From the IMG/VR virus record IMGVR_UViG_2728369187_000001: 16,925 nucleotides of DNA, one strand, 5' to 3'. The stretch is from a virus (taxonomy: Duplodnaviria; Heunggongvirae; Uroviricota; Caudoviricetes). Below the pieces are notes generated by a model. It did not search any database, had not been told where the DNA came from, and was given only the letters and a program-made list of their open reading frames with translations. Position numbers and translations under genes: made by a program. Of this stretch, positions 1 to 13,426 are shown piece after piece. The stretch's first letter is position 1, and each line of letters opens with the position of its first letter.

Positions 1-546
1 GTTGCCCCACAATTGAGCAGTAACACCAGCATAAGCGGTTCCCTGTGTGTTTAATGTCATGGTTGACCCATGATTGGCATATTTGATCTGTAATGTGTCG
101 GTGTAATTAAATTTAATAAGCGCGTTACTTCCACGCTTGCTGTATGACATAAGGCAGTTACCCATTTTGAGGTATCCGCTGTCACCGGGAAAAATCATCG
201 TACCGCCATAAAGGTTGGTAAAGTCCCAGCAAATGTTTGTCCCGTTATCGTTCAGGTTAAGGCGCGCCATTGCGTTACCTGGACTGTCTATCCATTTTTT
301 GAGGTATAGTTCGCAATACGCATCCTCAACACCTGCCGTCCTGTGAGTTGAGCGGAGTTTTCTCCCAAATATAGCTCCGCTAGTTGGCAATACCTGCTGA
401 TACCATGAAGCAGACCAGTCACCAACGATTTCATCTTTGCTGTCTACATATAATTTTGTTGCGTAGCTTCCTTGATCGTTTTTTAATTTGCTAACGTCGG
501 ATTTTAGCGTTTTGATGTCATCAGGAATTACTGTCGATGTAGCCAT
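1..546 (-). CDS. Hypothetical protein, N-terminal 182 codons only (gene continues beyond window start); function unknown, possibly tail-fibre-associated or a moron
   Basis: ATG at 546-544 preceded by a GAGGAAG Shine-Dalgarno ~5 nt upstream; hand translation of the minus strand stays open for all 182 codons to position 1 (MATSTVIPDDIKTLKSDVSKLKNDQGSYATKLYVDSKDEIVGDWSASWYQQ...TAQLWGN). Absent from the supplied ORF track because no stop lies in the window. Starts 9 nt after the stop of the upstream ORF. Confidence 0.55.
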   Translation of the reverse strand, partial: MATSTVIPDDIKTLKSDVSKLKNDQGSYATKLYVDSKDEIVGDWSASWYQQVLPTSGAIFGRKLRSTHRTAGVEDAYCELYLKKWIDSPGNAMARLNLNDNGTNICWDFTNLYGGTMIFPGDSGYLKMGNCLMSYSKRGSNALIKFNYTDTLQIKYANHGSTMTLNTQGTAYAGVTAQLWGN

Positions 547-555
547 TTTTCTTCC

Positions 556-837
556 TCACATCCAGCCACGAAGTTGATGCTCAACAGCAACCACGTATTC
601 ATCGAATAATGATGATATTTGCGAATCATTAATGATGCGCACGTTTACAAAATATCCGTCTTCCTTAACACATACCGGTTCGCCATCTTCAGTCAGTTCT
701 CCGGTTTCTTTGTACACGTTACCTATCACGTCAATAAGAATATCATCCTGCATCGACTCGTCATCATAATAGCCAATACTCTCCATAAAGGCCGAAAAGT
801 CGGCCCTGTCGGCAAATTTGAGTGTTAAATCTTTCAT
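556..837 (-). CDS. Small highly acidic protein (93 aa), translationally coupled to the tail fibre gene; candidate tail-fibre chaperone, function unknown
   Basis: ORF track 556..837. Its ATG (837-835) overlaps the TAA stop of the upstream fibre gene (TAATG). About 21 Asp/Glu against ~7 Lys/Arg, no signal peptide or hydrophobic segment. I recognise no family; it does not resemble lambda Tfa. Confidence 0.6.
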   Translation of the reverse strand: MKDLTLKFADRADFSAFMESIGYYDDESMQDDILIDVIGNVYKETGELTEDGEPVCVKEDGYFVNVRIINDSQISSLFDEYVVAVEHQLRGWM

Positions 838-3680
838 TAGATTGACTCCCCCACCTGAGCATCAGTCAATGCCTTGTGCCATATTCTGAAATTCCTGACA
901 TGACCAAATAAATGACGTAACCCGGCTGTAGTCTGGCCTCCAATACGGATAATTGCGGTGTTCTGAATACAGGACCATGTGGTTTTTGTTTCGCTGGATA
1001 TATGCCCGTTACTTACTGAGCACGTAGACTGCTCTGACTTTACACGCATCCCCATAACCATTTTTTCAAGCGATGCGTTTTCGTTTACCCGTCTGTTAGC
1101 TCCTCCAATATCGCAATAAGGAAATCCGTCGTAATCTGTTGAACGACCGAAACCAAGAATAATAGCCGCTCCGGTTTGATGACCGCCGGTATCAAAAACA
1201 CGTGGCGCTGCATTTGGCGTTTTATACCAGTTCTTATGTACCTCACAAAGAACCGTAAAAGGAAGATTATAAAGATTATTCTTAATTGGAACTGTAACTA
1301 TATCGCTTGCGCGGGTCGCCGCCGTCGCTCCTGATATAATAAAAGATGATACACAAGGCCCATCTTCTACTTGTGGGGTGGCCAGATAAATATAGTCACC
1401 AGATACGGTTGCCCCGCTCTGCTTAGGAGAATACTGTATCTGAGAGCCTATTTTTAACTCCCCATCAATTGCCTGAATTGTTGCCTCTGCAAAAATCCAT
1501 CCGGTAGCTTCGTCCTTTCTGACTCTCGCTGTAATCCTTGAGGCAGCACCGCCTGTCATATTAATTTCAAGCGTTTGTGTATCAATATACGCATCACCAA
1601 GAAAAGTTGTTGCGCTACCGTCATATTTATCAAACCGGATACGCAACCTTACCTGCAGTTCTGTTTTAAAACGACATGAGGTTGTCACGTGTTTATTATC
1701 GCCTGAGACATCAACTGACTTTGTTGCAGCAATTGATGCCATATTAATGGCTGAGGTTTGCCCAATCAGAGAATCGTTGCAGACAAACTTTCCATAGGTA
1801 AAACCAAAATTATCCGTCCCTGTTTCGGGCACATCCATATTTGACGATCGCCCCCAACTGGCAGGGCTTTCCGAATTGAGCATGTAGTTTGTTCTTTGCC
1901 CCTCAATAAGCAGGCCATCACGTTCAAATCGTGGCTCGTCAATGGCAGCCTCTGTCAGCACACCAGATTTGTTAATATAGGTTGCTTTCGATGCACGTTT
2001 AAACTTAACAATCTTGTCGCCAGGCATCGTTATTTCATCGTCACCAATAACAATTTTTTTATATGATGGCGAAAAGCCCGTAATCATATCCAGCGAATCG
2101 TTAAATGGTATCCACACATCAGGCAGCGGCTGTAAGACATATTTATACGGCTCCGCAGCCTGGCTTGCGTACTCTCTGGCTGCATCTTCGCTTGCTTTAG
2201 CTGCCGTCTGGCTTGCTGCCGATGCTTTCGCTGAGTTCGCAGCCGCTGTTTCGCTCACCTTTGCGTTGGTTTCACTGGTTTTTGCTGCTTTTTGACTGTT
2301 AGCTGATGCAGTAGCAGAAGCAGCCGCCGCGCTTGCAGAACTGGCTGCGGCACTCTCGCTTTGGGCCGCTGCATCCTGACTGCTTTTCGCCGCAGTTTCA
2401 CTGGCTTTGGCATTCGTTTCGCTGGTCTTCGCTGCCGTCTGGCTGGACTTTGCGTTAGTTTCACTCGTCTTCGCAGCTTTCTGGCTGTTAGCCGCAGCAG
2501 TTGCTGATCCAGCTGCTGAAGTCGCAGAACCGGCTGCCGCGCTCTCGCTTTGGGCTGCTGCAACCTGGCTGTTTTTTGCTGCAGTTTCACTGGCTTTAGC
2601 ATTCGTTTCGCTGGTCTTCGCTGCCGTCTGGCTGGACTTTGCGTTGGTTTCGCTCGTCTTTGCGGCTGTCTCGCTATTTTTCGCGTTGGTTTCTGATTTT
2701 TTAGCTGCTGTTGCGGAGTTTGCCGATGCAGTCTGCGAGGCCGCTGCCGCCTGTGCGCTGTTAGCTGCATTCGTTTCTGAGGTTTTCGCCGCGTTCTTCG
2801 ATGATGCCGCTGCAGTTTCGNNNNNNNNNNACCAGCTGCTGAAGTCGCAGAACCGGCTGCCGCGCTCTCGCTTTCAGCTGCTGCAGCCTGGCTGTTTTTT
2901 GCCGCAGTTTCACTGGCTTTAGCATTCGTTTCGCTGGTTTTCGCTGCCGTCTGGCTGGACTTTGCGTTGGTTTCGCTCGTCTTTGCGGCTGTCTCACTGT
3001 TTTTCGCGTTGGTTTCTGATTTTTTGGCTGCTGTCGCGGAGTTTGCCGATGCAGTCTTTGAGGTCGCTGCCGCCTGTGCACTATTAGCTGCATTCGTTTC
3101 TGAGGTTTTCGCCGCGTTCTTCGATGATGCCGCTGCAGTTTCGGATTTCTTTGCCGCCGCTGCGCTCTGAGAGGCGGCTTCGGCGTTGCGTGCCACTTCT
3201 TCCACCATTGCCTCAAAACGACGCAATGCCTCCGGCATGACATCATCTTCCGTCATGGCACCGAGAAAATCATTCAGCGTACCTGGTCTGGAACCTTCAT
3301 AGACGGTAATGGTTCCGGCATGTGAAGGCGGAAAACCTTCAACAAGCAGGATAACGCTGTACTGGCCATACTCAACATCCATGCTGTAACGCCCGGCTTC
3401 ATCCGGATTTTCAGAGGCCACCGTGTTCACNNNNNNNNNNGCCTTCATAGACGGTAATGGTCCCGGCATGTGAAGGCGGAAAACCTTCAACCAGCAGGAT
3501 GACGCTGTACTGGCCATGCTCAACATCCATGCTGTAACGCCCGGCTTCATCCGGATTTTCAGAGGCCACCGTGTTCACCAGTACCGTGGTGCTGTTACGC
3601 TTTGCCTTCAGTTGAATAGTGCAGTTCTGTATTGGTTTTCCCGCACCATCTTTCAGCACACCTGAAATCTGTACTGCCAT
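837..3680 (-). CDS. stf: Side tail fibre protein (Stf-like): lambda-Stf-type N-terminus, long Ala/Ser/Thr/Lys/Glu repeat shaft, lectin-like (LamG/ConA-type) C-terminal domain; reading frame broken by two N10 gaps
   Basis: N-terminus MAVQISGVLKDGAGKPIQNCTIQLKAKRNSTTVLVNTVASENPDEAGRYSMDVE.GQYSVILLVEGFPPSHAGTITVYEG matches my recollection of the lambda Stf N-terminus. ATG at 3680-3678 with GGAG 6 nt upstream (the track start at 3686 is a GTG). Track ORFs 3411..3686, 2255..3550 and 837..2258 are pieces of one gene: hand translation shows the 837..2258 frame is open upstream of the GTG at 2258 (...ANSQKAAKTSETNAKVSETAAANSAK...), so that GTG is an internal Val. Frame changes occur only at the N-runs. 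C-terminus ends ...GLRHLFGHVRNFRIWHKALTDAQVGESI. Confidence 0.8.
2821..2830. other. Assembly gap (10 N) inside stf repeat region
   Basis: Run of n; flanked on both sides by ~310-nt near-identical copies (2509..2820 and 2832..3143). Confidence 0.95.
3431..3440. other. Assembly gap (10 N) inside stf 5' region
   Basis: Run of n; flanked by ~150-nt near-identical copies encoding VNTVASENPDEAGRYSMDVE[H/Y]GQYSVILLVEGFPPSHAGTITVYEG. Confidence 0.95.
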
Positions 3681-3691
3681 ACTCACTCCAC

Positions 3692-3719
3692 AAATAAAAA
3701 AGGCGCCATTTCTGGCGCC
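3692..3719 (-). terminator. Intrinsic (rho-independent) terminator between J and stf, comparable in position to a post-J terminator
   Basis: Minus-strand RNA: GGCGCC-AGAAAU-GGCGCC followed by UUUUUUAUUU (plus strand aaataaaaaaggcgccatttctggcgcc). 6-bp GC stem, 6-nt loop, 7-U tract, sited 20-50 nt after the J stop (3741) and just before the stf RBS. Confidence 0.6.
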
Positions 3720-3740
3720 CGTATTGGGGTTATAAATATT

Positions 3741-6700
3741 TCAACGGATACTGATACCGGAAGCAGCTTTTTTGGTCACAATCACCGTACAGTCTGTGAT
3801 GTTACCTGCGCCCTGATTGCCTTTCTGGAAAATCTTAAACTCCAGAGTGACGTTACCACCACCACTCGGCATATCAATAACCGCACTGTAACTACCGGGA
3901 ATGGCTCCTTTAGTTTCTCTGGATGCGATTAATACGCCATTTTTGCGAACTTCAAAACCATAACCCGTGTATCGCGTACCTCCCGGGTTATTACCGCTCC
4001 CCGGATCGTCATACGCCACACCGTTAAAAATAATGGGCGGAATAATGATTTGGCGGTCAAAGTTATGATCATCGTAAATGGTGACTGTAACCGTCCCGTT
4101 TGGTGTTTCCGTGTTACCCCACGTACCAGCCTTTTTCGGGAATGATTTGGATACAGTTTTAACGAAGTCACCTCTGACCTGGTTCGCCTCCAGCATGCCC
4201 TTAATCGTACAGTTTTCATTTACCGTGACATTATTGAGCGTCCCGGAGTTCGCATTCACGTTACCGCTGATATCGGCATTTCTCGCCGTCAGCCGCCCGT
4301 CCGGTGTCAGGGAAAATGCCGGAGGATTACCGCCGCTGGTAATGGTGGGAGCCGTCAGATACTTCAGGAACACTTCGTTCATGAATATCTGGTTGCCCTG
4401 CGCCACAAACATCGGCGTTTCATTCCCGTTTGCCGGGTCAATAAACGCGATACGGTTAGCGGCAACCAGGAACTGGCTCAGTTTGCCTTCCTCCGTATCC
4501 TCCATGCTGAGGCCAAGCCCCGCGACATAATGTTTGCCGTCTTTGGTCTGCTCAATTTTGACGCCCCACATGGCATTCCATTTATCGTTGGCGTCCTTCC
4601 ACTCTTTCGAAAACTCCTCCAGTCTGCTGGCGTTATCCTCCGTCAGCTCGACTTTTTCCAGCAGCTCCTTGCCGAGATGGGATTCGGTTATCTTGCCTTT
4701 GAAAAAATCCAGGTAACCTTCCGCATCATCGCTCGCCCGACCGACGGCCTCCACGAATGCCGATTTGCCAACGGTGTTCACACTGCGGATATAAAAGTAA
4801 TAATCATGGCCCGGTTTGATATTGATACTGGCGGCTATCCAGTACAGCGCCGTACCAAGATAGCGGGCTGTGGTTTCAACCTGCCTGATATCGGTAATCC
4901 GCTTTTCCGAGAACCAGAACTCAAACTGTACCGTCGGATCATAAATCGCAAGATGCGGCGTGGCGGTTATCTGAAAATAGCCCGGCGTCAGCTCAATCCT
5001 CGACGGTGCTGCCGGTGCGGCAATCCGGAACGATACCGATGCCGGATCGCCCTGCTGTCCCCACGCATTTACCGCCCGGACCGTCAGCGTGTAACGCCCC
5101 AGCGCCAGTTGCCTGAAGCGGTATGTGGTTTCCGTCGTCCGGGCCGTGCTGACCAGCCGCTCACTGCCGTCGTCCGCTGCCACGGTCAGGCGAAGCATAA
5201 AGCTCACGCCCTTCACCACCTTCGGCGTGTCCCAGCGTGCCAGCACCTGATATTCCCCGCTGTCTGCGGTGACTTCGGCAGTCAGGTGCTGCACCGCTGG
5301 CGGCGTGACACCATTCACCGTGCCGCTCTGGTCGCCGTCAAAGTGCGCCCCGTTATCCACGATGGCCTCTTTCTCCGGCACATGCTGCACGGCGGTGATG
5401 GCATACGTGCCGTCATCGTTCTCACGGATACTCACGCAGCGGAACAGGCGCTGGCGCAGCGTCGGCAGCTTCAGCCCCCACACGCTGTATTCAGCAACAC
5501 CGTCAGGAACACGGCTCACTTTTACCTTCACGCCATCGGTGACAGACTGAACCTCCACGCTGACCGGATTGCCATTTCCGTCAACCAGGCTTATCAGCGT
5601 GGTGCCGGAGGATGGCAGCATGATTTCACGGTCGAGCGTCAGTGTCCGGGTCTGGCTGTTCACCGCCAGCACGCGACCACCGGTGCTGATACCGGCATAG
5701 TCANNNNNNNNNNNNNNNNNNNNNNNNNNNNNNNNNNNNNNNNNNNNNNNNNNNNNNNNNNNNNNNNNNNNNNNNNNNNNNNNNNNNNNNNNNNNNNNNN
5801 NNNNNNNNNNNNNNNNNNNNNNNNNNNNNNNNNNNNNNNNNNNNNNNNNNNNNNNNGTTACGACAGTAACGGGCAATGGCCTGCGTGTCCTCCACAAGCT
5901 CTGTCGCCGTCTCCCAGCCGTTATCCGGGTCAATCCAGTTCACCTCAACGGCATTATGGCGGTCCTTCAGGGCGCTGAAGCTGTAGCGGAACGGCGCGCC
6001 ATCATCCGGCATCACCACATTACTGCGGTTATAGGTCCACACCTTATCCGACGGTCGGTCCTGCACGAACGTCAGCGTCTGCCCGTTCCATACCGGCATA
6101 CAGCGCATCGCCGAGCAGAAATCACTGAGAACATCCCACGCCTTACGCTGTGTGGTCAGGTAGGCATTACAGGAAATGCGCGGCTCCGTGCCACCAAAAC
6201 CGTCCGGCACCGACTGGTCGCAATTCTGGCCGATGACATACAGCGCCCATTTGTCCACATCCGCCGCACCAAGACGTTTACCCATGCCGTAGCGCGGGTG
6301 GGTCAGCATATCCCACAGACACCAGGCCATGTTGTTGCTGTATGCTGGCTTAAACGTTCCGTCCCAGATACCGCTGTATTGCCGCGTCTGCGGGTTATAG
6401 TTCGACGGCACCTGCAGAATGCGCCCGCGAAGATGATAATTACGGCTCACCTGCTGGCTGCCGAACTGTTCCGAGTCCACCTGCACGCCGACCAGTGCCG
6501 TGTTCGGGTAGCACTGTTTCACATCGATGATTTCGGTGTATGACGACCAGAGCGTTTTGTTCTGCAGCTGGTCTGTGGTGCTGTCCGGTGTCATCCTGCG
6601 CATCCGGATATTAAACGGGCGCGGCGGCAGGTTACCCACCACCACCGATGCCAGATACTGTGAGGTGGTTTTGCCTTTAATGGTGATGTCTTTTTCCGTC

Positions 6701-7147
6701 ACCCAGCCACCGTTACGCTGTATCTGAACCAGCAGGCGGACTTCCGACGGATTCCGGTCCCCCTTTGAGGTGGTTTCCACCAGTGCCTGCACACCGAAGG
6801 TAAAGCGCAGACGGTCGATGTTTGCAGACGTGATGGTCCGGGTGATCGGCGTGTCGTATTTCACTTCCGTACCCAGCACCGTCTCGGAGCCGGAGGATTC
6901 AAATCCCTCCGGCGGTGTCTGCTCCTGCTCACCTGCCCGGAAAACCACCGTGACACCGGAGATATTGGTATTCCCCTCACTGTCCAGCACTGGCGTACTG
7001 TTCAGCAGCACACTTTTTAATCCGTCCACCGGACCTTCAATCGGCCCTTCACTGATGGCGTCTATCACGCTCAGCATCTGCGTGGACTTCAGGTTGTCCT
7101 TCGCTTCGCGCGGGGTATGCCCCTTACTGCTGCCTTTNNNNNNNNNN
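3741..7147 (-). CDS. J: Host specificity / central tail fibre protein J (tail tip); start codon lies in an N-run, internal 153-N gap, divergent C-terminal receptor-binding region
   Basis: Track ORFs 5701..7209 (frame valid after the 7138-7147 gap: [41 protein letters not shown]...) and 3741..5933 (...[27 protein letters not shown]...) match lambda gpJ over ~1000 aa by recollection. The two pieces are in different frames because the N-run length is arbitrary. Stop TGA at 3743-3741. Confidence 0.9.
5704..5856. other. Assembly gap (153 N) inside J
   Basis: Run of n. From the lambda J alignment it replaces roughly 55 codons between ...ARYCRN and DYAGIS... Confidence 0.95.
7138..7147. other. Assembly gap (10 N) covering the J start codon
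   Basis: Run of n immediately 5' of codons KGSSKGHT; a GGAG lies ~10 nt upstream of the expected ATG. Confidence 0.95.
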
Positions 7148-7167
7148 CTCACACTCCAGAAACGACA

Positions 7168-7187
7168 AAACCGCCCTGAGGCGGTTT
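7168..7187 (-). promoter_or_regulatory. Intercistronic hairpin between I and J (8-bp stem, 4-nt loop), possible attenuator or mRNA structure
   Basis: Plus strand aaaccgcc-ctga-ggcggttt is a perfect inverted repeat. On minus-strand RNA it is followed by UGUCGUUUCUGGAG (interrupted U-rich stretch, then the J Shine-Dalgarno). Confidence 0.35.
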
Positions 7188-7205
7188 CACATAAAACGTT
7201 TTTCA

Positions 7206-7853
7206 TCAACGACCAATCACCACAACCTGACCACCGTCCCCCTCGTCTGCCGTGCTGATCTCCTGAGAAGCCACCCGCGACCCCACGCGCATTTCACCGT
7301 ACAGAACAGGCAGAACATTGCCCTGGGCAACCATGTTATCCAGTGATGAGAAATAGGTGTTCTGCTTACCGTTATCCGTGCTGGTCGCTGTGGGCGTCCG
7401 GGCTTTCGGTGCCAGCATCTGGGCCACACCACCCAGGATCATACTGGCCCCTGCCGCATACATGCCCGATACAGCCGCGGCACCCAGCCAGCCCACAGGG
7501 TTCCACCATGCCACCGCAATCAGCGCCGCCCCCAGCACCACCTGAAACACACCGCCACTTTTAGCTCCCGCCAGACGCGGCACGATGTGGATCACGGCAC
7601 CATTTGCCAGCGGCTCATTAAGACGGGCAGATAATTCGGTTTCACCTGCATCACGCCCGGCAATGCGCACCTGATACCAGCCGTCATTCAGTTTCTGACG
7701 AAACGCCGGGAGCTGTGTGGACAACGCCCGGATGGCTTCAGCCCCCGTTTTTACACGAAGGTCGATGCGGCGGCCAAATCGTTGTAAATCCCCGTAAAGG
7801 CAGATGCGTGCCATGCCCGGTGACGCCAGAGGGAGTGTGTGCGTCGCTGCCAT
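7206..7853 (-). CDS. I: Tail tip assembly protein I
   Basis: Track ORF 7206..7853, 215 aa: MAATHTLPLASPGMARICLYGDLQRFGRRIDLRVKTGAEAIRAL...TYFSSLDNMVAQGNVLPVLYGEMRVGSRVASQEISTADEGDGGQVVVIGR, essentially lambda gpI by recollection. Overlaps the 3' end of K by ~100 nt as in lambda. Confidence 0.9.
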   Translation of the reverse strand: MAATHTLPLASPGMARICLYGDLQRFGRRIDLRVKTGAEAIRALSTQLPAFRQKLNDGWYQVRIAGRDAGETELSARLNEPLANGAVIHIVPRLAGAKSGGVFQVVLGAALIAVAWWNPVGWLGAAAVSGMYAAGASMILGGVAQMLAPKARTPTATSTDNGKQNTYFSSLDNMVAQGNVLPVLYGEMRVGSRVASQEISTADEGDGGQVVVIGR

Positions 7854-8427
7854 TTGTCGGTATACCTCTCTCGTTTGCTCAGTTGTTCAGGAATATGGTG
7901 CAACAGCTCACCGTCGCCGCAGTAAATGGCGGCATGATTCGGCACCGATGAACCAAAACAGCACAGCAGCACATCGCCCGGTTGTGCTGATGACAACGGC
8001 ACCTGATACAACCCTGTGGCCTCCAGATTATCCAGATAGAGATTCTGACCGTGACGCCACCAGTCATCCTCGCGATGAAAATCCGGCATCTCAATCCCCG
8101 CCAGATGGTAAGCATCCCGGAACAGCGTGTAACAGTCCGTCACCCCGTGCTCAAAGCGCCGCCCGGAAAGATGTGGCACACAGCGGAACTTGTGAATCGC
8201 CCCCCGGCAGACCAGCCACCACGGCAAATCACTCTGCNNNNNNNNNNNNNNNNCTCTGCCCGCAGCCAGTCCTCCGGCGACATCCGGAAATACTCCTCCG
8301 GCTCACCGGAGATATTCACGCAGGGAAAATATCTTTCCCCCTCCGGTGTTCTCACCACGAAGCCGCACGACTCCGCTGGCGCACATCGCCGGGCGTGCGC
8401 CAGAATCGCTGATTCTGTCTGTGTCAT
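7751..8427 (-). CDS. K: Tail tip assembly protein K (N-terminal MPN/JAMM-type domain plus C-terminal NlpC/P60-type domain), interrupted by a 16-N gap
   Basis: Track ORFs 8140..8436 (MNPMTQTESAILAHARRCAPAESCGFVV...SPEDWLRAE) and 7751..8227 (PWWLVCRGAIHKFRCVPHLSGRRFEHGVTDCYTLFRDAYH...) match lambda gpK by recollection. Start taken at the MTQTESA Met (8427); an upstream ATG at 8436 is also possible. Confidence 0.85.
8238..8253. other. Assembly gap (16 N) inside K
   Basis: Run of n flanked by the same hexamer ctctgc on both sides. By comparison with lambda K it replaces ~28 codons, including the region expected to carry the HSHPGG metal-binding motif. Confidence 0.95.
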
Positions 8428-8432
8428 GGGAT

Positions 8433-9131
8433 TCACTGCGAAAGTTTGTTAATGGAAAGGAAGCCGCCAAAGTTGCCGACGTTATTGCGAAACTTACAGC
8501 CACTCAGGCATTTGCTGCATTTATCCTTCGTGATATCGGACGTTGGCTGGTCATATTCATCCGCGACAGCTGGACCGTGATAACCGCACTCATCACCGCG
8601 ATAGGTCCAGGTGCAGGTGTTGGCCAGCATGATACGTCCCGGAAAAACAGCGCCGTCCGTTTCCGTCGGCGTGGACAGTACAAAGGAGGCACTCACCGCG
8701 CTCAGTTCGCTGCACTGCTCGATGCGCCAGCGGCTGATCACCTCCTGCTCCGGATCGGCGTCTCTGTTTCCGTTGACGAAGTTCACCGCATCCAGAAAAC
8801 GGGCGTAAACCTTACGCCGGACCACCGTTCCGCCGACCAGACTCTGCAGATCTTCCGCCATCCCGGTGACCATGCCGTACAGATTAGAGACTTTCAGCGT
8901 TGGCCTTGCACTGGCTCCTTTGCCGTTCATCTCAAATCCGCTTCCCTGAATGGGATAGGCCTGATACTGCCGCCCCTGCCAGGTGACTGGTTCACCTTTT
9001 TCGTTCTGCTCATTACAGAAGAAATAACGATCTCCGCCGACCTCTGTCAGATCAATTTCCCAGAGCACGACCAGCGCGGATTGCTCCGTTTTAGTGCACT
9101 CATTGAGTGTTTCCTGCTGTATATCCTGCAT
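8433..9131 (-). CDS. L: Minor tail protein L (tail tip)
   Basis: Track ORF 8433..9131, 232 aa: MQDIQQETLNECTKTEQSALVVLWEIDLTEVGGDRYFFCNEQNEKGEPVTWQGRQYQAYPIQGSGFEMNGKG..., near-identical to lambda gpL by recollection. Its ATG overlaps the M stop. Confidence 0.9.
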   Translation of the reverse strand: MQDIQQETLNECTKTEQSALVVLWEIDLTEVGGDRYFFCNEQNEKGEPVTWQGRQYQAYPIQGSGFEMNGKGASARPTLKVSNLYGMVTGMAEDLQSLVGGTVVRRKVYARFLDAVNFVNGNRDADPEQEVISRWRIEQCSELSAVSASFVLSTPTETDGAVFPGRIMLANTCTWTYRGDECGYHGPAVADEYDQPTSDITKDKCSKCLSGCKFRNNVGNFGGFLSINKLSQ

Positions 9132-9487
9132 CAGTGAGTGACCTCTTCAAAGGTACAGTTAAAATCGGTATACATGGCATTATCCGAAATGCTCCACTCC
9201 CTGCAGACAACCCGGACAGTCCTGTTGTGTTTTGGCGGACGCCACAAAAAAGCACGAATCCCGGCATGACGGGATAAAAAACTGTCCAGCGCGGCACGGG
9301 AATATTCATCTGTGACACGAAATACCGGTTTAAACGTTTTCAGATCCGCATTCAGACCACCAGCCCGTCGCTGTTCATATCCGTCACCAAACTTTACCGT
9401 AATAACTGATGGCTTTCGTGTCGTCTCCATCCCCTCACGGGGGATCCAGTTAAAAACTTCAGGCTCAGGCACTGTACAATCCTCCAT
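9131..9487 (-). CDS. M: Minor tail protein M
   Basis: Track ORF 9131..9517. The segment WIPREGMETTRKPSVITVKFGDGYEQRRAGGLNADLKTFKPV aligns with lambda gpM (W.V.PGMD...VRFGDGYSQRAPAGLNANLKTY). Start placed at the ATG 9487-9485 (MEDCTV...), 23 nt before the H stop; the start is uncertain and ATGs at 9517 or 9430 are alternatives. Confidence 0.75.
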   Translation of the reverse strand: MEDCTVPEPEVFNWIPREGMETTRKPSVITVKFGDGYEQRRAGGLNADLKTFKPVFRVTDEYSRAALDSFLSRHAGIRAFLWRPPKHNRTVRVVCREWSISDNAMYTDFNCTFEEVTH

Positions 9488-13049: not shown

Positions 13050-13426
13050 TTAACCTCGCCGGCATCACTGATCAGTTCCAGAGACTGCCGAAGAAGCCGC
13101 GCATGCACCGGGCCATACACGGCAATCACCTGTTCACGATCATCCTCTGAAAATACAGGTTGCAGTCCGGTATCACACAGAACATCAATGAACAGTTCAA
13201 CATCTGCCTCCAGATTTCGGCGGGCGCGCTCCGCAACGGATAACGGTGTCTCATCATCTTTTGCTTTAACGATCTCCTGCCAGCGCAACCAGGCTTCTGC
13301 AGAAGGTTCCCGTAATACAACCGTTGCCCCTTCCCATTCAGGCACATCAACAGTTTTATGGCGAAACCCCGACATCGTTGCCAGTGCCAGATTGCGGATA
13401 TTTTTAGTCATCACATCTATCCTCAT
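13040..13426 (-). CDS. G: Tail assembly chaperone (gpG-like)
   Basis: Track ORF 13040..13426, 128 aa, acidic, ending ...DAGEVKKK-stop. Sits immediately after the major tail gene (TAATG overlap at 13426). A GAGGA precedes an internal ATG at 13411 (MTKNIRN...), which may be the true start. Confidence 0.8.
   Translation of the reverse strand: MRIDVMTKNIRNLALATMSGFRHKTVDVPEWEGATVVLREPSAEAWLRWQEIVKAKDDETPLSVAERARRNLEADVELFIDVLCDTGLQPVFSEDDREQVIAVYGPVHARLLRQSLELISDAGEVKKK
13043..13049 (-). promoter_or_regulatory. Programmed -1 ribosomal frameshift slippery heptamer A_AAA_AAG (G to G-T)
   Basis: Minus-strand mRNA ...GAG GUU AAA AAA AAG UAG; the heptamer A AAA AAG occupies the last three sense codons of G. 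A -1 slip continues into the open T frame (..KK VELPGMRFLMML..). The -1 frame carries a UAA just 5' of the heptamer (13052-13050), so the T frame is only reachable by shifting here. Confidence 0.7.

Follow-up and report, generated by a model that had tools for sequence, protein, structure and literature searches.

A lambda-type tail tip protein J with a C-terminal receptor-binding domain of the phage 434 class in an Escherichia coli prophage

Upon adsorption, phage lambda inserts four distal loops of the receptor-binding domain of its protein J (gpJ), termed L1–L4, into LamB. The loops enter the extracellular mouth of the trimeric porin. Binding triggers a spreading of the three domains, a twist in the beta-prism fibre, a flip of the helical shaft, and the opening of the tail tip (PMC11101478). 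[quoted passage not shown] Point mutations in J can open OmpF to lambda, an evolved receptor use (PMC6646904), and natural J C-termini grafted onto the protein have been shown experimentally to retarget lambda particles from LamB to OmpC (Eligo preprint). One such chimera carries the C-terminus of A8 gpJ, for which structures in the closed state (9wca) and with OmpC of E. coli EDL933 (9wcb) exist; since the A8 class of J is OmpC-specific, porin switching by swapping of this domain is established. The chimeras containing the A8 and 1A2 domains tell the OmpC of strain MG1655 from that of EDL933 (Eligo preprint). Another OmpC-using J is that of Gifsy-1, whose C-terminus is only 18% identical to that of lambda, and a receptor-prediction preprint covers GpJ of the Drexlerviridae in an alignment that does not include lambda. 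Phage 434 uses OmpC, and lambda equipped with the 434 tail fibre gene binds OmpC, according to summaries in two papers (PMC11101478, PMC3509688). A hybrid of both phages, lambda h434 imm21, has been sequenced (OM418627; PMC9119081).

The stretch of DNA analysed here (hereafter the window; 16,925 nucleotides, IMG/VR record IMGVR_UViG_2728369187_000001) represents the late region of an E. coli prophage, with head and tail genes on the minus strand. The closest complete genome, E. coli AR_0089, is 99.4% identical to the whole window. Five runs of undetermined bases (N) occur at positions 2821–2830, 3431–3440, 5704–5856, 7138–7147, and 8238–8253, and these are scaffold joins rather than length-preserving masks. 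The gene of interest encodes J, the tail tip attachment or central tail fibre protein (Table 1). Its stop codon occupies positions 3741–3743, and its start at 7143 was placed within the N run at 7138–7147, so that the start codon and also residues 430–484 are hidden under N runs. The gene appears as two open reading frames (3741–5933 and 5701–7209) whose frames differ by one base across the longest N run. Residues 430–484 are coded by 165 nt, one base of which (position 5703) can still be read, and the homologous J of AR_0089, which matches the window protein at 100% over residues 3–429 and at 99% over residues 485–1137, is a single ORF of 1137 amino acids. Because the AR_0089 gene is intact and the N run stands for 164 nt, the apparent frameshift is regarded as an assembly artefact, and J is, to judge from these sequences, best read as one gene of 1137 codons extending from 7143 to 3741. 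Real frameshifting, with J as a pseudogene, was considered and rejected in favour of a scaffold join on the same grounds. Duplicated flanks were looked for around the gaps in J and K, and none were found there.

Table 1. Features of the prophage window around gene J.
Feature	Position	Strand	Remarks
Start of further “tail fiber domain-containing protein”	1–546	-	phrog_4563 / phrog_19752
93-aa ORF downstream of stf	556–837	-	phrog_1361
stf-like side tail fibre gene following J	837–3686	-	PF08400 at N-terminus
Terminator-like hairpin followed by T run, in the J–stf spacer (3687–3740)	3701–3720	-	
Gene J (tail tip attachment / central tail fibre protein)	3741–7143	-	inferred 1137 aa
Divergent C-terminal block of J, 434-type receptor-binding domain and last fibre strands	3744–4202	-	J residues 985–1137
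Variable region 4, residues 1109–1120	3795–3830	-	+2 and -6 aa vs lambda 1099–1114; pairwise alignment
Variable region 3, residues 1080–1090	3885–3917	-	+1 aa vs lambda at 1078/1079; pairwise alignment
Variable region 2, residues 1044–1062	3969–4025	-	+6 aa vs lambda at 1043/1044; pairwise alignment
Variable region 1, residues 1008–1021	4092–4133	-	+2 aa vs lambda at 1011/1012; pairwise alignment
Mosaic junction, end of DNA similarity to lambda J (residue ~985–990)	4185–4202	-	blastn, sliding DNA identity
153-N run within J	5704–5856	.	stands for 164 nt; apparent frameshift

Most of the J protein closely resembles that of lambda (NC_001416). The identity amounts to 98.1% over residues 3–429 and to 90–100%, determined in windows of 30 residues, from residue 485 to approximately residue 980, where it falls to 23–47%. 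From residue 985 to the end of the protein, 55 of 159 aligned columns are identical (34.6%). The same break is found at the DNA level, as J is 90–100% identical to its lambda counterpart up to position ~4185, and the sliding identity drops from 0.83–1.0 to 0.3–0.6 at residue ~985 (position ~4200). The blastn similarity ends at position 4185, which corresponds to lambda nt 18474 and J residue ~990. The initial annotation had described J as lambda-like with a divergent C-terminus at positions 3741–4200 and had quoted one peptide each from the window protein and lambda J; the coordinates and both peptides were found to be correct, with the break in identity at residues ~985–990. Upstream of the break, positions 4185–9151 align in syntenic order to lambda nt 13409–18474 with 90–94% identity and thus constitute a lambda-like tail tip module of the genes L, K, I, and J. 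According to a blastn comparison of the whole window, DNA similarity to lambda is limited to L, K, I, residues 1 to ~990 of J, and the N-terminus of stf.

Considering that the window was scaffolded across N joins, that the reading frames of J differ across the 153-N run, and that contig ends are duplicated at two 10-N joins in the stf gene, one might suspect that a mis-joined scaffold fused the J genes of two prophages, or that J is a frameshifted pseudogene. Such an artefact is very unlikely. The junction at ~4185–4202 lies inside 2263 uninterrupted bases (3441–5703) and thus does not stem from scaffolding. In addition, the same arrangement of J body and receptor-binding domain, with the same junction, is present in finished genomes and in phage isolates, among them phage Tritos with 99.8% DNA identity in the receptor-binding domain, and the finished AR_0089 genome, nearly identical across the window, carries an intact J of full length.

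The J protein of phage 434 (UMO75362, OL657227) has the same length of 1137 amino acids as the window protein, is collinear with it, possesses a lambda-like body, and departs from lambda where the window protein does, at residue ~985. Of the last 169 residues, 155 are identical in the two proteins (91.7%), and the 14 substitutions are not accompanied by any gap. A total of 34 substitutions separates both proteins over residues 485–1137, and the DNA identity to 434 J dips to 80–88% over residues 925–1025. In lambda h434 imm21, a comparison of mismatches revealed that J equals lambda up to nt 2131 and equals 434 from about nt 2115, which locates the lambda-to-434 crossover at nt 2114–2132 of J (codons ~705–711). 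The C-terminal domain of the hybrid J is identical to that of 434, and residues 985–1137 are the only strongly divergent segment within its 434-derived part. With the crossover at this location, the block is part of the classical h434 host-range allele. Judged by its sequence, the block is the classical h434 host-range module, which has long been known and is sequenced in both 434 and lambda h434 imm21. The primary papers on 434 and OmpC are reportedly those by Fuerst and Bingham from 1978 and by Wang, Hofnung and Charbit from 2000. Downstream of the crossover, lambda h434 imm21 consists of 434-derived DNA throughout, with lom, stf, and the Nle effector morons among its genes. That the hybrid also contains 434 DNA downstream of J means that its composition fits, but does not prove, a role of J as the host-range determinant.

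In the alignment with lambda J, the block shows four variable regions that differ in sequence and length (Table 1). Region 1 coincides with the known indel hot spot at lambda residue 1012, and regions 2, 3, and 4 are located near those at 1049, 1077, and 1107, respectively. The four indel sites plausibly correspond to the lambda loops L1–L4, for which the text of PMC11101478 gives no residue ranges. Between the variable regions, the motifs DDHxFDRQ, DMPxGxGN, and KKxxxGIS are common to the block and the lambda domain. These conserved motifs, together with a shared Pfam family and fold, would be expected if the C-terminus were a LamB binder that had diverged no further than is usual among lambda-type J proteins. 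Across the LamB-binding domain of lambda J (~985–1132, including the four hot spots), however, the identity is as low as 34.6% and indels occur at all four hot spots, the similarity to lambda DNA is lost abruptly instead of gradually, and the near-identical domain of 434 confers the use of OmpC and not of LamB according to the two papers cited above. A diverged LamB binder is therefore extremely unlikely, and the receptor is probably different from that of lambda.

Pfam family PF12421 (Ig_GpJ_C; tip attachment protein J, C-terminal receptor binding domain) matched residues 1001–1136 with 88.9 bits (cut-off, 26.2 bits) when scored on gpJ of AR_0089, whose C-terminal domain is identical to that of the window protein, and the same family is also present in the homologues found. 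The search for homologous proteins returned mostly short partial J fragments, which sufficed for an alignment but not for a census of J classes. The Pfam domains detected on AR_0089 gpJ are Phage-tail_3, Ig_J, FNIII-A_GpJ, Ig_J_second, Phage_Tail_Tip, and Ig_GpJ_C. Among solved structures, a search by sequence retrieved A8 gpJ (9wca, 9wcb) with an E value of 8.5e-38 and lambda gpJ (8xcj, 8xck, 8iyk) with E values of about 1e-26 to 1e-27. In an AlphaFold2 monomer model, the last 169 residues of J adopt an all-beta structure (mean pLDDT 75.4). Confidence is lowest in the second variable region, where the pLDDT is below 50 at residues 1056–1059 and averages 52 over residues 1049–1058, as expected for an exposed loop. 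The top Foldseek matches of this model were 8xcj and 8xck (lambda gpJ with LamB and closed, respectively) as well as 9wca and 9wcb, with E values of 3e-14 to 7e-14 and TM scores of 0.68–0.70. The predicted fold thus matches the solved receptor-binding domains of lambda and A8 gpJ. The lambda domain shares with the block PF12421, the predicted fold, and the position at the tip of a near-identical fibre, but it binds LamB and is only 35% identical in sequence. The A8 domain is of the same family and fold, is experimentally OmpC-specific, and is about 46–50% identical to the block when compared via the PDB entry; it belongs to another class, which is found in many Stx1a and Stx2a phages.

It is highly probable that the window J combines a lambda-type body with a C-terminal module of the 434 class, probably OmpC-binding, that was gained by recombination. 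The hub, the FNIII and Ig domains, the helical shaft, and the beta-prism fibre (residues 1 to ~985) are of lambda type, and homologous recombination would have brought in the block, with a single crossover falling in the conserved part of the fibre directly upstream of it. Since the four variable regions differ from those of lambda in sequence and length and closely match those of 434, the most likely receptor is probably OmpC rather than LamB. By homology with the lambda and A8 structures, three copies of the Ig-like or jelly-roll domain would sit together at the distal end of the central tail fibre as its tip, and this trimeric domain would dock on a trimeric porin in a manner resembling lambda and the complex of A8 gpJ with OmpC (9wcb). 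The fibre upstream of residue 985 is essentially that of lambda, so only the docking specificity should differ, and the trigger mechanism of lambda is presumed to be shared by the window J. The initial annotation holds in two parts, namely a mosaic swap of the C-terminal receptor-binding region and the probable use of a receptor other than LamB. The latter agrees with 35% identity to the lambda domain, the indels at the four hot spots, and 92% identity to the OmpC-using 434; a C-terminus inside the normal variation of LamB-binding J proteins had been named as contradicting a receptor change, and the comparison does not show this. Its further proposal that the domain might be uncharacterised did not stand, because the domain is the h434 module, belongs to PF12421, and is carried by many phage isolates as well as by ~39% of the complete E. 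coli genomes.

The 460 nt of the block were detected, at a coverage of at least 80%, in 2092 of 5426 complete E. coli genomes (~39%), and the module is thus an ordinary one. Its alleles are unevenly distributed, with 45 records at an identity of at least 99% and 2059 records at 90–95%. On the basis of these sequence identities, the window J is assigned to a minor (“Tritos-type”) sub-allele of a very common class. A tblastn search with the last 169 residues of the window J against 50,697 phage records yielded matches that fall into classes. The class with at least 91.7% identity comprises PhiR63_1, PhiR11_1_star, 2851, cdtI, several Stx1a and Stx2c phages, Perceval, and phage 434. Another class of 179 records with less than 60% identity contains many Stx1a and Stx2a phages (about 44–48%) as well as lambda, HK630, and DE3 (39%). 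The last 169 residues are 100% identical in Tritos, PhiR63_1, and AR_0089, and the DNA of the block is 99.8% identical in the phages Tritos and HannyBb. With 99.8–100% identity in the C-terminal domain, Tritos, HannyBb, PhiR63_1, and the AR_0089 prophage show nothing notably different in J. Tritos, which is prophage 3 of the AIEC strain LF82, forms siphovirus particles and plaques on MG1655 hsdR- (PMC9928086). The record of PhiR11_1 (98.9%) names MG1655 as host. Phages with this allele or a near-identical one are therefore viable on K-12, like phage 434. Plaque formation of Tritos on K-12 is compatible with, but not specific for, the use of OmpC. A literature search retrieved no publications on HannyBb and PhiR11_1, and no receptor data for the ECOR prophage collection.

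Of the 14 differences from the 434 domain, six are located within the variable regions (A1009V, N1019D, V1046I, D1050N, Q1110H, and G1115W), and a seventh (I1108V) is found one residue ahead of variable region 4. The latter region thus holds two of the differences, Q1110H and the exchange of glycine and tryptophan at position 1115. Small changes in J can alter the specificity for a porin or a porin allele, as is evident from the A8 and 1A2 chimeras and from the evolved use of OmpF by lambda. Although its domain is of the 434 class, the allele in the window could in this way recognise another porin (OmpF, NmpC, and PhoE would be examples) or be confined to certain variants of OmpC. Substitutions in and beside the variable regions, including the one at position 1115, would agree with this possibility, as would the bimodal allele frequencies, which suggest a distinct sub-lineage, and the precedents of allele-specific OmpC recognition by J chimeras and of J point mutations that open OmpF. 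Another receptor is nevertheless unlikely, as the domain is 92% identical to that of 434, with all its variable regions free of indels, the substitutions are distributed evenly and do not cluster in one loop, and phages with this allele plaque on K-12 like 434 does. It is likewise improbable that the specificity of the Tritos-type allele has shifted to certain OmpC variants or, less likely still, to another porin; if this were true, the allele would represent a natural intermediate in porin switching inside one J domain class.

For annotation, the assignment of the block implies that the central fibre of this prophage is of the 434 class and is probably directed to OmpC, not to LamB. The receptor class of J and the separate side tail fibre together predict the host range of the phage and which resistance mutations would block it. 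The locus also illustrates the modularity of the J C-terminus, a property that has already been used to retarget lambda particles to OmpC. The module itself is already known, since identical sequence is contained in public phage and genome records and the 434 module is one of the longest-known cases of a mosaic J. As the module, the mosaic junction, and the prevalence are all documented, no new question is opened by this locus.

The gene downstream of J encodes a side tail fibre (stf)-like protein. Its pieces are 96–99% identical to a single ORF of 790 amino acids in AR_0089. The DNA flanking each of its two 10-N joins is duplicated (3294–3430 vs 3442–3578, 97% identity; 2509–2808 vs 2832–3131, 95% identity), which explains why the gene seems to be split and to exceed its proper length by about 450 nt. 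Real pseudogenisation of stf was rejected in view of these duplicated flanks at both joins and the single ORF in AR_0089. The duplicated flanks diverge by 3–5%, which points to a joining of contig ends derived from different alleles or copies of the prophage. The stf-like protein contains a long region rich in Ala, Ser, Thr, and Glu with repeats of 21 and 42 nt at the nucleotide level and motifs such as SETNAK and TAAKTSE. Its C-terminal domain of ~470 amino acids (phrog_1419) had no match in Pfam. The protein probably acts as a second determinant of host range. Since another tail fiber gene begins at positions 1–546 (Table 1), at least two fibre-like proteins are encoded besides J.

In phage 434, a lom/Ail gene and then a different, shorter stf come after J, whereas the prophage in the window has the stf-like gene of 790 codons and no lom/Ail gene between J and stf (positions 3687–3740). 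The order of J and stf without an intervening lom is shared with AR_0089 and Tritos, in contrast to lambda and 434, which have lom. The similarity of the window to Tritos is restricted to positions ~1–9134, i.e., to the L-K-I-J-stf module, and does not include the head or tail-shaft genes; there is therefore another mosaic junction near the start of gene L. At this second boundary (~9134–9151), the DNA similarities to lambda and to Tritos both stop. Upstream of gene L, a gene for a tape measure protein of 1077 amino acids, the tail shaft genes, and head genes of the HK97/P27 type match other phages such as phi467 and vB_EcoM-606R7. The near-identical prophage of AR_0089 likewise carries head genes of the HK97 and P27 type.
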